Below, piece by piece: positions 41,837 to 64,000 of a stretch of 64,000 nucleotides of DNA. The DNA is from Candidatus Shapirobacteria bacterium. Lineage in GTDB: Bacteria; Patescibacteriota; Microgenomatia; UBA12405. The DNA is taken from positions 140,906-204,905 of the forward strand of contig JBAZYN010000002.1 of the NCBI GenBank assembly GCA_041659325.1. Direction: 5' to 3'. The position numbers and the translations under genes are program-made. The notes below the pieces were generated by a model. That model saw nothing but the letters and a program-made list of their open reading frames with translations. It did no database searches and was not told where the DNA came from. Positions within the stretch are counted from its first letter, which is position 1, and every line of letters starts with the position of its first letter.

Positions 41837-44302
41837 GTGAACAAGAAACCAAAGGTCTTGTATTATTTGGTCCTGTTATTGGCGTTGGGAGCGGCGGTGT
41901 ATTTGGCCGGGAAGAGCCAGGAAACAAGGAGAGGAGCTTATTTTGCCGGAGCCAGGGTGAATATATTGCCGGAAATGATTACCGGAAAGGTGGGGGCGGT
42001 GGTGCCGGTTCAAGTTTGGGTGACGAGTAACCAAATTGCCGGATCTGCGGAACTGGCGAAGGTAAGCTCACTTGACGCGACCGTGTGTTATGGTGACGAA
42101 TTGGTTTTGAATGCTGATACTTTGGATGAGGATTTGCAACTGAACACTGCAGCTTTTAAGAGTGTTGCCTTTAAACAAATTCAAACGCTGCCAACTTCTG
42201 TGGACGGAACAAACAAATGTTTAAAAATGGTTTTGATAACTACCGGGATACAGCCTGCCAGTTTGAAATCAGGGACTTTTCAGGCGGCAACAGTGAGGTT
42301 TAGGGGGGCAAAAGCCGGAAGCGGAAAAGTGATAATTAATACGGTGACAATGGGAGGATATAATCCTGCTCCCGGGGCAACTGATATGAGCCTGGAGGTG
42401 TCGGAAAAGAGAGGGGCAAGTTATACAATTAGCGGGACGTCGGTGACGGGAGATGTAAATTTTTACCCAATTGATTCACAAAATAAGGCAGTAGTGGTCG
42501 GTCAGTCGGTTGAGGGATTTTTGAATTTTGCAATTGGGACGAAAAAGCTGAGCGGGGTTGATTTTAGACTAAAATACGATAAAAATTTGTTGAAGTTTGA
42601 ATCGATTACGCCAATATTAACTAGCGGGGTGGCCGGTTTGGGGGCAAACTGTAATTCGGCGCTGTTTGGGGCCGAAAGTGATTTGTTGGATAAAAGAGTA
42701 GACGAGACTAATGGAACGATTAACTTGGCCGGTGTATCTATGGAAACTGATGACACTAAGTTTGCGACAGGAAATGTGTGTTTGGCAAGATTCAAATTTA
42801 GAGCGCTAGTGAACGGAGAAGCGGTAGTTACTTTGGATACTAATTATGAGAATATGGCGGCGGGTTATTTTCCGGGACAGGCGGACCAGAGCATAGGAGT
42901 GGGAAATATTGTTCCACTTAGATTTGTTATTGGTGGGGGGAGTGTTCCAACCAATACACCGACAGTGAGGCCAACCAATACCCCATGGATACAGCAACCA
43001 ACTAATACGCCGTGGATTAGACCAACTAATACACCGATAGTGAGGCCAACTAACACGCCGTGGATTAGACCAACTAATACACCGATAGTGAGGCCAACTA
43101 ACACGCCATGGATTAGACCAACTAATACACCGATAGTGAGGCCAACTAATACCCCATGGATACAGCAACCAACAAATACTCCGTGGATACAGCAACCAAC
43201 TAATACGCCGACAGTGAGGCCAACTAATACCCCATGGATACAGCAACCAACAAATACTCCGTGGATACAGCAACCAACTAATACACCGACAGTGAGGCCA
43301 ACTAATACCCCATGGACACCTTCCCCGACTGCGCAACCGACAACTCCTGTTTGTGGCAACGATGAACTGGCAGGACAAGGGGTGAGCGAGATAGAGTATG
43401 AAGTGGGAATGACTTCGGGTCATTTTACCTTTTCTTGGGCGTTGTATGCATTACCCGATAAGGCAGAAGTGTTCTATGAAGGGACAAAATTGTTTGAAGT
43501 AGCGGATGATAACGATGATTTTAAGGAGGTTGTCCTCAATTTTGGACCTGGTACCTCAACAAAGATTAAGGTGAGGATTGCTCCTGAAGATGGGGTTACC
43601 GAATCTTTGTGGTATTACAAAATTGACTGCCCAGTAGCCGGACATGTTCAACCGACCAGTACTCCAGTCGGACCGACAAATACACCAGTTAGACCGACGG
43701 CGACTCCAGTACCAGCAACCGCCGGGTGGCCGATTCTGAAATATATGATCTCCTACAGGGATGTAATATCCGGTAATATGTGTGCGACTGATTGGCCGGT
43801 GGTAATTACGGCTGTTGCTCAGGATGGAACGACTAAGGTATATCAAGGGCAGAGGCCGGTTAGGGACACATCTATTAGTACCGCCATGGTCTATAGGGGC
43901 CAATTAACTTTGACAGATTTTCCTTATTATGAAAAAGTGGCTATTTTCTTTAAGGGGCCAAAGCATCTACAGAGTAAGTATGGAGTTAATAACCAGAATG
44001 TTTATTATGCCTATGCCGGCGGAAATATCGTAATGACTGATAATGAGTCGGCTACTCCGGTCTATGATTTCAGCGGTTATCCTTTGATGCCGGGTGATGT
44101 AACAGGTGAGACAGTGGGAGCTCCGGATGGGGTAGTGGACGGAAGAGATTATTCTTTCGTGAAGGCGGCCGCAACCAGAATCGACGAAGTAGGTGATGGT
44201 GATTACCTGCAGGCCGATATGGATGGAAACTGCAAGGTAAACGGGATGGATACTGCTTACTTTAAACAAACACTAAAAGATAAGTTGGAACAGATGTATT
44301 AG
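41837..44302 (+). CDS. membrane-anchored surface protein: cohesin-like N-terminal domain, ~15 tandem PTNTP(W/I)(I/V)(R/Q) repeats, C-terminal dockerin-like Ca-binding repeat
   Basis: GTG start. It has an N-terminal TM and then a domain paralogous to the N-terminus of the 63111 gene. 24-nt tandem repeats span 42946-43318. The C-terminus has ADMDGNCKVNGMDTAYFK (a D-x-D-G-x-x-N-x-x-D dockerin-type loop). Confidence 0.65.
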   Translation: MNKKPKVLYYLVLLLALGAAVYLAGKSQETRRGAYFAGARVNILPEMITGKVGAVVPVQVWVTSNQIAGSAELAKVSSLDATVCYGDELVLNADTLDEDLQLNTAAFKSVAFKQIQTLPTSVDGTNKCLKMVLITTGIQPASLKSGTFQAATVRFRGAKAGSGKVIINTVTMGGYNPAPGATDMSLEVSEKRGASYTISGTSVTGDVNFYPIDSQNKAVVVGQSVEGFLNFAIGTKKLSGVDFRLKYDKNLLKFESITPILTSGVAGLGANCNSALFGAESDLLDKRVDETNGTINLAGVSMETDDTKFATGNVCLARFKFRALVNGEAVVTLDTNYENMAAGYFPGQADQSIGVGNIVPLRFVIGGGSVPTNTPTVRPTNTPWIQQPTNTPWIRPTNTPIVRPTNTPWIRPTNTPIVRPTNTPWIRPTNTPIVRPTNTPWIQQPTNTPWIQQPTNTPTVRPTNTPWIQQPTNTPWIQQPTNTPTVRPTNTPWTPSPTAQPTTPVCGNDELAGQGVSEIEYEVGMTSGHFTFSWALYALPDKAEVFYEGTKLFEVADDNDDFKEVVLNFGPGTSTKIKVRIAPEDGVTESLWYYKIDCPVAGHVQPTSTPVGPTNTPVRPTATPVPATAGWPILKYMISYRDVISGNMCATDWPVVITAVAQDGTTKVYQGQRPVRDTSISTAMVYRGQLTLTDFPYYEKVAIFFKGPKHLQSKYGVNNQNVYYAYAGGNIVMTDNESATPVYDFSGYPLMPGDVTGETVGAPDGVVDGRDYSFVKAAATRIDEVGDGDYLQADMDGNCKVNGMDTAYFKQTLKDKLEQMY
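42946..43318 (+). repeat. 24-nt coding tandem repeat (~15.5 copies) with 48/72-nt higher-order structure
   Basis: Alternating ccaactaatacaccgatagtgagg (PTNTPIVR) and ccaactaacacgccgtggattaga (PTNTPWIR) units. Toward the 3' side it runs PTNTPWIQQ-PTNTPWIQQ-PTNTPTVR. Confidence 0.9.
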
Positions 44303-44337
44303 ACCATGCTATACTAACCGGAATTGGGGGAAGATGA

Positions 44338-44411
44338 GGGTGATTAGCTCAGTTGGTTAGAGCACCGTCCTGATAAGACGGGGGTCAATAGTTCGAGTCT
44401 ATTATCACCCA
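44338..44411 (+). tRNA. tRNA-Ile (anticodon GAT)
   Basis: Acceptor GGGTGAT/ATCACCC, D-loop TAGCTCAGTTGGTTAGAGC, anticodon stem CCGTC/GACGG with loop cTGATaa, and T-arm GGTTCGAGTCT. Confidence 0.85.
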
Positions 44412-44764
44412 CATATGGGCGAGAGTTATTGTGAACAAGTAAAGGGTGGGGGTATGAGGCTATGTTACAATTAAGCTATGAGTAGGTTTACTGTATTGAA
44501 GGTGTTTTGTTTCTTTGCGGCGGTGGGATTGATTGCTTTTGGAAGTGTGGAAAATGTAGGGCGAACGATAAAATTTGCTTTTGAAAAGTTTAATCGGTAA
44601 GTGAAATTTGTCTTATTGACGAATTAACCGTATTTAGGTAGAATAGGAACACTTGCGGATGTTGACGAATAAGAAATATAAGTTCAAAAATTTTTGAGGA
44701 AGTAGTATTTTTGAACTCATAGGGCCGCAAGATGCGGCTCTTTTTATTTTTGGACTAAGGCCTT

Positions 44765-63091: not shown

Positions 63092-63110
63092 AAAAATGGT
63101 ATTATAATTT

Positions 63111-63767
63111 ATGGCAGTTAAAGTTAAATCTTTTTGGGTGATTTTGTTTTTGTTGGCAGTGGTGGTGGCAGGGGTGTTTTTGGCCGGAAAGAGGCAGGAG
63201 ATAAGAAAGTCAGCCTATTTTTCGGGGGTAAAGGTGACGATACAACCGGAGGTAATAAGTGCAGATATGGGGAAAGAAGTACCGGTGCAGTTGTGGCTAG
63301 AAACGGATAAGGTTAGCGGGTCTGATGACTTTGCCAAGGTCAGCTCGGCGGATATAACAATGTGCTTCGGGTCGGAGCTAGTGTTGGACGAAAAAAAACT
63401 TGAGAGTTTGATTGAATTAAATCAAGAAGCGTTTAAGACATTAGTAATGGCTTCGCTGACAAAGAAAGGGGCAAATGAGAGCTGCCTGAAGATAGTGGCT
63501 TTGAGTACGGGGATGGAAATAGACAAGTTGAAATCAGGAATTTTCAGAGTGGCAACAATCAAGTTTACCCCTGTTCGCGAGGGAACGGGAAAGATCGACG
63601 TACCACAAGAGAGGGTATTTGTGGCCGGTTATAACCCGATGCCGGGTTCGGCCGATAGCTCATTGGCAGTCGGGAGTGTGATGGGGACAAATTATGACAT
63701 TGGTGGATCACAAAAAACATCCGGAAGCTGCTTTTTCCTTTGGAGGTGGCTCGGGTGGTGCAGGTGA
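63111..63767 (+). CDS. membrane-anchored cohesin-like domain protein (paralog of the 41837 N-terminus)
   Basis: MAVKVKSFWVILFLLAVVVAGVFLAGKRQEIRKSAYFSGVKVTIQPEV...VPVQLWLETDKVSG...AKVSSADITMCFGSELVL aligns with the 41837 protein (VPVQVWVTSNQIAG...AKVSSLDATVCYGDELVL). Confidence 0.55.
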   Translation: MAVKVKSFWVILFLLAVVVAGVFLAGKRQEIRKSAYFSGVKVTIQPEVISADMGKEVPVQLWLETDKVSGSDDFAKVSSADITMCFGSELVLDEKKLESLIELNQEAFKTLVMASLTKKGANESCLKIVALSTGMEIDKLKSGIFRVATIKFTPVREGTGKIDVPQERVFVAGYNPMPGSADSSLAVGSVMGTNYDIGGSQKTSGSCFFLWRWLGWCR

Positions 63768-64000
63768 TGAGGGTGGTGATTGGCTGTTTTTTGGCGGTGT
63801 TTTTTTGGGTTTCTCCGGTCACGTGTTTGGCTGCCACTACTTATGAAATGTCGGATCCTGACAGTTGGAATCAGAGAATTGACGGGCAGGCTTGGCATGA
63901 CCATATTCCAGATAGGGTACTTAGGGTAGCTGACTTGGATGATGATGGAATAAATGATTATATTTTTGGCTCGATTGGATCGGATTATGGTGGTGGCCAT
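63766..64000 (+). CDS. secreted protein, N-terminal fragment, with FG-GAP/VCBS-like Asp-rich repeat (runs off the window end)
   Basis: TGATG stop/start overlap with the upstream gene. MRVVIGCFLAVFFWVSPVTCLAATTYEMSD... then DLDDDGINDYIFGSIGSDYGGG. The ORF is open to the window edge. Confidence 0.45.

Follow-up and report, generated by a model that had tools for sequence, protein, structure and literature searches.

A predicted non-cellulosomal cohesin-dockerin surface-display locus in a Candidatus Shapirobacteria genome

Introduction

Cellulosomes, as described for Clostridium thermocellum (CipA with OlpB and SdbA) and Ruminococcus flavefaciens (ScaA-ScaB with ScaE), combine enzymes that carry C-terminal dockerins, built of duplicated Ca-binding segments, with cohesin beta-sandwich sockets on noncatalytic proteins. 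They also include adaptors, in which cohesins are accompanied by a distinct dockerin of the adaptor's own, placed after a conserved module (the X module-dockerin, or X-Doc, dyad). The cohesin protein ScaE of R. flavefaciens is anchored by sortase via an LPXTG motif. Similar elements were found in a 64,000-nucleotide stretch of DNA (the window) from a metagenome-assembled genome (MAG) of Candidatus Shapirobacteria (contig JBAZYN010000002.1, positions 140,906 to 204,905), a Patescibacterium (Candidate Phyla Radiation [CPR], Microgenomates group), and in its relatives. The window contains enzyme-borne C-terminal dockerins, cohesin sockets on noncatalytic proteins and one adaptor-like protein, and relatives encode a sortase-type cohesin protein resembling ScaE. 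Here, we describe the six open reading frames (ORFs) concerned, each named by its first position in the window (41837, 55733, 57957, 59428, 61259, and 63111), which probably encode a non-cellulosomal cohesin-dockerin surface-display system. We determined the domains and their folds, the paralogies, the signal peptides, and the conserved gene neighborhood; the identity of the cohesin and dockerin domains is secure.

The window also differs from the cellulosomal systems. It holds no cellulases, hemicellulases, or carbohydrate-binding modules (CBM), and each cohesin protein has only one or two cohesins. Its main cohesin family (here termed CohN) is too divergent for Pfam, and a hydrophobic helix followed by the motif QETRRGAYFAG is found in place of anchoring by surface-layer homology (SLH) domains. 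The cargo belongs to uncharacterized families, and the bearer is a Patescibacterium with a reduced genome.

Cohesin-dockerin pairs outside cellulosomes are well known. They include the glycosidase toxin complexes of Clostridium perfringens, and archaeal and bacterial cohesin and dockerin modules outside cellulosomes were reportedly surveyed by Peer et al. in 2009. As in the window, the modules of such systems assemble secreted hydrolases or surface proteins and have no plant-wall role. In contrast to these systems, the locus described here is related to a conserved five-gene, Patescibacteria-specific cassette that is partly membrane proximal and partly sortase linked, and enzyme cargo occurs only in some Patescibacteria lineages.

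Little is known of how the ultra-small Patescibacteria adhere to partner cells and feed on them, and annotation is lacking for most of their surface proteins. Metaproteomics of the deep subsurface (Olkiluoto) showed that proteins carrying cohesin and dockerin domains are expressed by Candidatus Shapirobacterales BG1-G2 (Bell et al., bioRxiv 10.1101/2021.08.21.457207; PMC9123182). This one-sentence report, based on domain annotation, called these proteins a cellulosome. They come from the same order as the window organism and probably belong to the same protein families, but the report contains no analysis of architecture, of the divergent CohN family, of the cassette, or of the cargo. The essential envelope protein SEML1_0315 of the Saccharibacterium Southlakia epibionticum is a dockerin-domain protein whose proposed targets are host glycans (Wang et al., Cell 2023, PMC10633639). 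SEML1_0315 thus resembles the window proteins as a dockerin-domain protein of the cell envelope in a Patescibacterium; it comes from a different class, and a cohesin partner is not mentioned in the passage of PMC10633639 consulted. Beyond single-sentence mentions in PMC9123182 and PMC10633639, literature searches aimed at CPR/Patescibacteria retrieved no account of a cohesin-dockerin cassette, of the CohN family, or of its juxtamembrane motif. The existence of Shapirobacterales cohesin and dockerin proteins was therefore known already, and the CohN family, the juxtamembrane motif, and the gene cassette (A-B-C-D) are, to judge from these searches, new here.

Three secreted proteins carry C-terminal dockerins

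All six ORFs assigned to the set by an initial annotation of the window were found on the + strand, as are nearly all genes of the region. Four of them encode large proteins, and all four proteins start with typical signal peptides:

55733..57937, + strand: secreted clan GH-A-like hydrolase, with a Cys-rich module at 57491-57619 and a dockerin at 57758-57934
57957..59381, + strand: secreted member of a family restricted to Patescibacteria, with a weakly metzincin-like fold and a dockerin at 59202-59378
59428..61206, + strand: paralog of 57957 that lacks a dockerin, Cys repeats at 60529-60735 and 60766-60975, Cys-rich module at 61069-61200
61259..63091, + strand: secreted protein with Cys residues, a weakly DUF4832-like region, and a dockerin at 62909-63088

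The C-terminal tails of 55733, 57957, and 61259 were compared with Pfam model PF00404 (Dockerin_1), which has a curated gathering score of 22.9 bits. The scores were 25.0, 32.1, and 26.9 bits, respectively, all above the cut-off. The EF-hand_1 model (cut-off, 25.4 bits) reached only 13 to 16 bits on the same tails, and the reading of these tails as generic EF-hands was rejected. The earlier description of four large secreted proteins, three of them ending in dockerin repeats, was thus borne out. A search of all six frames of the 64 kb with a 12-residue loop pattern (D-x-N/D-x-D/N-G-x-V-x-x-x-D) yielded exactly six loops, two at each of these three C termini. The paired loops are 29 residues apart, and the helix start DF(A/G)xWK follows both. 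In this subtype, designated alpha, a conserved Cys precedes the module and another Cys occupies loop position 4 (C-x-KKGSGDANCDG).

The sole PDB sequence matches to the three tails were cellulosomal dockerins, and single-sequence PDB searches of the cargo proteins returned nothing beyond dockerins and low-complexity linkers. The NCBIfam model of GC-type dockerins gave 20 to 23 bits on the window dockerins, under its 29-bit cut-off. Two window proteins are 100% identical to NCBI/JGI proteins encoded on a 335-kb contig of a Candidatus Shapirobacteria MAG and are named by NCBI "dockerin type I repeat-containing protein" and "dockerin type I domain-containing protein"; the Dockerin_1 model does not separate dockerin types, and type I is not assignable from sequence.

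Cohesin modules of the 41837 and 63111 proteins

The two remaining ORFs encode proteins with cohesin modules, and the features of these proteins are as follows:

41837..44302, + strand: 821-amino-acid (aa) scaffold protein, type A of the cassette described below (ORF and domain searches; CohN hidden Markov model, E 6e-65)
41855..41950, + strand: hydrophobic helix (aa 7-25) and motif QETRRGAYFAG (aa 28-38) of 41837, from the sequence
41921..42451, + strand: CohN, the divergent cohesin-fold module of 41837 (aa 29-205), missed by Pfam
42452..42931, + strand: second cohesin of 41837 (aa 206-365), PF00963 match
42947..43316, + strand: Pro/Thr-rich linker PTNTPWI(Q/R)... of 41837, a tandem repeat in the DNA
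43352..43633, + strand: Cys-flanked domain of about 94 aa (CGNDELAG...KIDCP) of 41837, no Pfam match, absent from ortholog P0001
43727..44101, + strand: conserved beta-rich domain (WP...KGPKHLQSKYG...) of 41837, from the family consensus, no Pfam match
44093..44299, + strand: divergent C-terminal dockerin of 41837, Dockerin_1 match below threshold, ortholog above it
63111..63767, + strand: short CohN protein of 218 aa (AlphaFold2 [AF2] model; ortholog P0020 in the same radA-to-rho locus of a relative)

The modules of 41837 follow one another in the order listed, from the hydrophobic helix and juxtamembrane motif through CohN, the second cohesin, the repeat linker, the Cys-flanked domain, and the beta domain to the dockerin. 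The 63111 protein consists of a hydrophobic helix, the motif variant QEIRKSAYFSG, a cohesin-fold domain (63195-63725), and an aromatic/Cys tail, SCFFLWRWLGWCR (63726-63764).

The second cohesin of 41837, which the initial annotation had missed, is detectable with Pfam model PF00963 (Cohesin; gathering score, 24.1 bits). Residues 206 to 365 scored 27.1 bits alone (E 5.2e-6) and 22.3 bits within the whole protein, and P0001 scored 28.9 bits. Over the N-terminal helix and the beta-rich domain, 41837 and 63111 share 41% identity (E 2e-55), in agreement with the paralogy proposed before. When the Pfam-positive second cohesin was used as a phmmer query, it matched the N-domains of family members, down to E 2e-20. 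Alignment of the CohN profile (81 sequences) with the profile of the second cohesin by hhalign gave a probability of 98.5% (E 2.6e-15) over 140 columns. The 63111 domain (aa 29-205) was modeled by AF2 as an all-beta sandwich with a predicted local distance difference test score (pLDDT) of 94.7 and a predicted template-modeling score (pTM) of 0.88. In a Foldseek search of the PDB with this model, ranks 1 to 25 were all cohesins, with a best E value of 2.7e-8 and target-normalized template-modeling scores of up to 0.74. The top matches included 6kgf, C. acetobutylicum CohA2, C. cellulolyticum 1g1k, C. thermocellum 1aoh/1anu/1ohz, and ScaC/ScaE of R. flavefaciens. Weaker matches to pilin and integrin beta-sandwiches followed behind all cohesins at ranks 26 to 36. 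Because the phmmer cross-matches, the hhalign result, and the structural matches agree, the N-domains of 41837 and 63111 are, by profile comparison and predicted fold, cohesins, as had been suggested from their motifs.

A word-indexed homolog search with residues 1 to 365 of 41837 found one protein only. An exhaustive profile search revealed a CohN family of 94 representative clusters. Nearly all of these representatives start with a basic N terminus and a hydrophobic helix of about 20 residues. Most members continue after CohN with the conserved beta domain (KGPKHLQxKYG) and a C-terminal dockerin, and short forms such as 63111 carry an aromatic/Cys tail in place of both. PF00963 matched 11 and Dockerin_1 matched 42 of the 89 family members scored.

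The C terminus of 41837 had been described as a single loop. It scored 18.6 to 21.4 bits with Dockerin_1, just under the cut-off, over profile positions 7 to 56. Loop 1 contains an insertion (GDVTGETVGAPDGVVDGRD), and loop 2 has the regular 12 residues with a Cys at position 6 (DMDGNCKVNGMD). The terminus, ...K(Q/L)EQ(L/M)Y, is conserved in the family. Ortholog P0001, which is 67% identical to 41837, passed the cut-off with 23.5 bits, and the 41837-like protein of a further relative (locus L008) reached 29.2 bits. Since profile positions 7 to 56 are covered and P0001 passes, the C terminus of 41837 is, as judged from these matches, a divergent but complete two-segment dockerin, which replaces the single-loop description. 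The beta-rich domain in front of it would be analogous, by its position, to the X-module of cellulosomal adaptors.

Tandem Repeats Finder detected periods of 24, 48, and 78 bp in the linker of 41837, with 96 to 97% matches at the long periods. The repeat is missing from P0001 and therefore looks like a recent expansion. On the 5' side of the 41837 gene (36073-41747), a 7TM_transglut membrane protein and three ATP-grasp genes (ATPgrasp_ST, RimK-like) are encoded. Three ATP-grasp genes also precede the P0001 gene (L001 91-3627), so synteny is kept on this side.

Juxtamembrane motif and C-terminal tails

The juxtamembrane motif occupies positions 41918-41950 in 41837 and 63195-63227 in 63111. In at least 63 of the 94 CohN representatives, the consensus Q-(N/S)-Q-(E/D)-T-R-(R/K)-G-A-Y-F-A-G directly follows the hydrophobic helix. 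In the AF2 model of 63111, this motif is not part of the folded domain. The helix could serve as a signal-anchor or, if the motif marks a conserved processing site, be cleaved off as a signal. Readings of the motif as a Tat (twin-arginine translocation) signal or a type IV pilin signal failed, as it stands after the helix and not before it. A SipW-type signal peptide is possible by analogy of position and of the A-Y-F core; in a scan with the NCBIfam models, none matched the motif. QETRRGAYFAG could represent a new sorting or processing signal.

The short CohN proteins 63111, P0020, and P0038 end in aromatic/Cys tails (SCFFLWRWLGWCR, NCFFVWKWLGWCR, and SCFFLLEWLGWCK). A similar C terminus, KSCFRFLWWCW, was found in the protein encoded next to 63111:

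63755..64000, + strand: N-terminal part, cut by the window end, of a secreted FG-GAP/fn3 protein of 1057 aa (from gene map and translation data on the extended contig, L002 3761-6934)

The Pfam matches of this protein are FG-GAP, Pur_ac_phosph_N, and fn3. Judging from the likeness of these sequences, the tail may be a tag for anchoring or sorting that is common to these C termini, and the 1057-aa protein may be a member of the cluster.

A conserved gene cassette in relatives

To place the locus among its relatives, GTDB genomes and JGI metagenomes scanned with the pattern ETRRGAYFA were evaluated. The scans yielded 19 loci from about 13 distinct genomes, a sample biased to members with this exact motif; a GTDB scan with an alignment in place of the pattern retrieved no relatives. 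In every locus whose contig reaches far enough (about 13 distinct Patescibacteria loci), four genes follow one another in the invariant order A-B-C-D (loci L003-L008 and L013-L024, e.g., L005 9914-13425). Protein A comprises the helix, CohN, the beta domain, and a dockerin ending in ...QLY or ...QMY. Protein B is a transmembrane cohesin protein of about 200 aa (Pfam Cohesin, 25.8 bits in L005). Protein C has a signal peptide, a cohesin (39.9 bits in L005), and an LPXTG motif. Protein D contains a transmembrane segment, an fn3-like domain, and a dockerin (26.8 bits in L005). In nine or more of the loci, the gene immediately before A encodes a protein with an alpha-subtype dockerin at its end; this protein is often very large and Cys-rich. 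L005 and L007 have dnaX on the downstream side. In all of the approximately 15 independent loci examined, cohesin genes adjoin dockerin genes in a conserved order.

Two further arrangements resemble the window more closely in their cargo. In L011/L012, the slot from S1-radA to rho encodes a 979-aa alpha-dockerin protein (29.6 bits), a Glyco_hydro_cc enzyme (47.8 bits) with a dockerin, a 209-aa transmembrane cohesin protein, and P0020, an ortholog of 63111 with 67% identity and the same tail, CFFxWKWLGWCR. In L008, an ortholog of 55733 (43% identical) with a dockerin is encoded directly upstream of the A-like protein. The A-like protein is followed by a 217-aa Pfam cohesin protein that ends in LPESG and a hydrophobic tail, by a transmembrane fn3 protein with a dockerin loop, and, further on, by a LysM-M23 gene and another transmembrane cohesin gene.

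The 41837 protein has all elements of type A and is uniquely extended by the second cohesin, the tandem-repeat linker, and the Cys-flanked domain. From these comparisons, the window appears to hold a rearranged derivative of the Patescibacteria cohesin/dockerin cassette, a relation that the initial annotation had not recognized.

Cargo proteins

The ORF of 55733 opens at 55652 (TTG), and the NCBI model has 741 aa; the same signal peptide is obtained from every candidate start. Seven homologs were found, five of them with dockerins. The motifs WDIGNEPP (NEP motif, 56297-56320) and GVGELNP (GELNP motif, 56711-56737) are 138 residues apart and invariant in the seven homologs. By sequence, this pair corresponds to the acid/base and nucleophile pattern of clan GH-A, with E194 (NEP) and E330 (GELNP; 734-aa numbering) as the two conserved Glu residues. 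Comparison of the family profile with the PDB revealed GH44 (3ii1, E 1.2e-6), GH79 and GH44 (E 0.002), and GH51 (E 0.01 to 0.08). An Alpha-L-AF_C beta-sandwich was matched by five of the seven homologs, and in Pfam no GH family matched the 55733 protein itself. With its invariant motifs and distant profile matches to GH44, GH79, and GH51, the 55733 protein is a candidate for the clan GH-A-like hydrolase proposed at first.

The domains of 57957 and 59428 are 67% identical and have no Pfam match, which agrees with the two paralogous domains reported before. Their family consists of 18 proteins, which come from Patescibacteria wherever the source names the organism. The 57957 family profile found nothing among PDB sequences. 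The family has the motif H-x-x-G-H-x-x-E (H-I-Y-G-H-R-I-E, aa 205-212 of 57957), in which H, G, H, and E are nearly invariant, and C-G-N-S-H-F-P-H-N is nearly invariant too (motif sites 58560-58592, 58725-58754, and 60034-60066). The metzincin zinc motif HExxHxxGxxH is absent from the family, and no Glu follows the first His. A metzincin protease reading, prompted by the modeled fold, is a weak lead; 57957 and 59428 may represent metal-dependent hydrolases of a new, Patescibacteria-specific family.

The 59428 protein contains, in addition, two Cys repeats of about 70 aa (CQPG.WTQ...) with no Pfam match. A 44-aa module with eight Cys residues, likewise unmatched in Pfam, is common to 55733 and 59428 (64% identity over 45 aa, E 2e-18), and the shared Cys-rich module noticed earlier was thereby recovered.

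Interpretation of the locus

Genes for alpha-dockerin proteins and CohN proteins repeatedly adjoin in independent genomes, with cargo varying in the slot, which suggests that these modules work together. A non-cellulosomal cohesin-dockerin surface-display system is the probable function of the locus; the metaproteomic detection of Shapirobacterales proteins with these domains (PMC9123182) also speaks for it. For the binding and pairing of the modules, the mode of anchoring, and the substrates, we infer the following arrangement. The three proteins 55733, 57957, and 61259, exported by the Sec pathway and tagged with a Pro/Thr linker and a C-terminal two-loop dockerin, would act as plugs. They would dock in a Ca-dependent manner into surface-held modules of the cohesin fold, for which the short CohN protein 63111 and both cohesins of 41837 are candidates. 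The 41837 protein is probably an adaptor, because it combines cohesins with a distinct dockerin of its own after an X-like domain; this dockerin would dock onto another cohesin protein. In relatives, the partner of the adaptor would be the LPXTG-anchored cohesin protein, whose gene is the second one after that of the adaptor. Placed at the cell surface, the hydrolases would have as their most plausible substrates glycans or envelope polymers, be they those of a host or partner cell or of the environment.

Several observations weigh against this interpretation. Only three dockerin-tagged proteins are encoded within the window. The CohN N-domains of 41837 and 63111 matched neither PF00963 nor any other Pfam model, even at E values up to 10, and when the CohN profile was compared with PDB sequences, R. 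flavefaciens cohesins came first, with an E value of only 0.07. Homologs of B, C, and D were not found in the window, in which tRNA-Ile, tRNA-Ala, 23S, and 5S genes follow 41837, and a search of the window for LPXTG proteins retrieved only a spurious antisense ORF. Membrane anchoring of the CohN proteins is uncertain, because a conserved motif with basic residues on both sides trails the helix; of the shared N-terminal transmembrane anchor assumed at first, the hydrophobic helix is present in both proteins, and its role as an anchor is in doubt. As for the cargo, the GH profile matches of 55733 fall mostly on the C-terminal barrel edge and the beta-sandwich, approximately the C-terminal third, and this protein is best described, from its sequence, as a distant, unclassified clan GH-A-like hydrolase of unproven activity. 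The DUF4832 match of 61259 (E 0.012 to 0.047) is below the cut-off.

More tentatively, and with less than even probability, the surface-display locus might be a lineage-specific offshoot of an undescribed surface organelle common to many Patescibacteria that would be assembled hierarchically at the interface with the host cell. Its five genes might be those of the Cys-containing dockerin protein and of A, B, C, and D, an assignment that is just as tentative. In Shapirobacteria-like lineages, this organelle might have become a platform for exchangeable hydrolases that open the host envelope or host glycans, with QETRRGAYFAG and the CFFLWRWLGWCR tail as new sorting or processing signals.

Alternatively, the cassette and the Cys-rich and FG-GAP proteins may hold together a structural envelope or adhesion scaffold, to which hydrolases are accessory (e.g., autolysin-like enzymes acting on the organism's own wall). 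The cassette is invariant, lies beside the housekeeping gene dnaX, and includes a cohesin that is a sortase substrate; the protein upstream of A is usually large and Cys-rich, without enzyme domains. An FG-GAP/fn3 adhesin-like protein follows the cluster in the window, and LysM-M23 peptidase genes neighbor the loci in L008 and L011. The essential dockerin-domain protein of a cultured Saccharibacterium (PMC10633639) also fits a scaffold. However, the tagged proteins in the window, L008, and L011 are hydrolase-like and differ from one another, which is a better fit to exchangeable cargo. A predominantly structural role is rather unlikely, and it overlaps with a surface-display system more than it excludes it.

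It is improbable that the modules are unpaired, with dockerins serving as Ca-stabilized or glycan-binding tails, cohesin folds serving as Ig-like spacers, and their co-location being incidental. Orphan dockerins or cohesins are said to occur in many genomes (Peer et al., reportedly in FEMS Microbiol Lett, 2009), and the pilin and integrin sandwiches among the weaker Foldseek matches would suit a spacer. Cohesins, however, clearly outscored other beta-sandwiches, and the conserved adjacency of cohesin and dockerin genes in all of the approximately 15 independent loci argues against incidental co-location.

A true cellulosome, that is, a scaffoldin-organized complex degrading plant cellulose or hemicellulose, is highly improbable: cohesin and dockerin modules are present, 55733 resembles clan GH-A enzymes including GH44 "cellulase" structures, and expressed Shapirobacterales proteins were read in this way by Bell et al., but no cellulase or hemicellulase family, CBM, or SLH domain reached threshold in Pfam or NCBIfam among the window proteins, there are merely two or three cohesin modules (at most two per protein) and three dockerin proteins, the upstream alpha-dockerin protein of most relatives is Cys-rich with no enzyme domain detected, and the other cargo belongs to Patescibacteria-only families. 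Because cellulases and CBM are lacking and cohesins are few, the locus is not a cellulosome in the defining sense. The term "miniature cellulosome-like," used at first, is apt as an architectural analogy and goes too far with respect to cellulases and CBM, which were not found.

A non-cellulosomal surface-display system at this locus would provide a concrete architecture made up of a small number of cohesin sockets, dockerins of three subtypes, and a handful of hydrolases that bear the tags, tied to a gene cassette that is conserved in many Patescibacteria. The main cohesin family of Patescibacteria is invisible to standard domain models, so surveys with Pfam or dbCAN undercount CPR cohesins, and such surveys may mislabel CPR cohesin-dockerin systems as cellulosomes. 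The clan GH-A-like family and the H-x-x-G-H-x-x-E family are candidate new enzyme families. The interest would be higher if the cassette were a general surface organelle of Patescibacteria at the host interface.

Gene order and surroundings

The gene map of the region begins with 41837-44302 (821 aa), which is followed by tRNA-Ile, tRNA-Ala, 23S rRNA, a LAGLIDADG ORF, and 5S rRNA. Next are the genes for ribosomal protein S1, a small ORF, a PMT_2-type membrane glycosyltransferase, and radA, and then 55733-57937, 57957-59381, 59428-61206, 61259-63091, and 63111-63767. Past the end of the window, on the same contig, the gene for the 1057-aa FG-GAP/fn3 protein is followed by rho. The set had been placed near the rRNA/radA region, and the map puts the rRNA genes, S1, and radA between 41837 and 55733.

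The rRNA region (44338-49423) contains tRNA-Ile, tRNA-Ala, 23S, and 5S genes, and a 16S rRNA gene is absent from the entire 64 kb. A free-standing LAGLIDADG_2 homing-endonuclease ORF (48075-48659, E 2.6e-42) is located in the 23S-5S spacer; the full-length 23S match stops at 47994, before this ORF.

In the left part of the window (3718-9689), genes for TraG/VirB4-like ATPases and M23 peptidases were found. The dnaA gene (12528-13883) is on the - strand, whereas the large genes are nearly all on the + strand. GC skew is strongly positive across the window (1-64000), with values of +0.15 to +0.47 per 2 kb.

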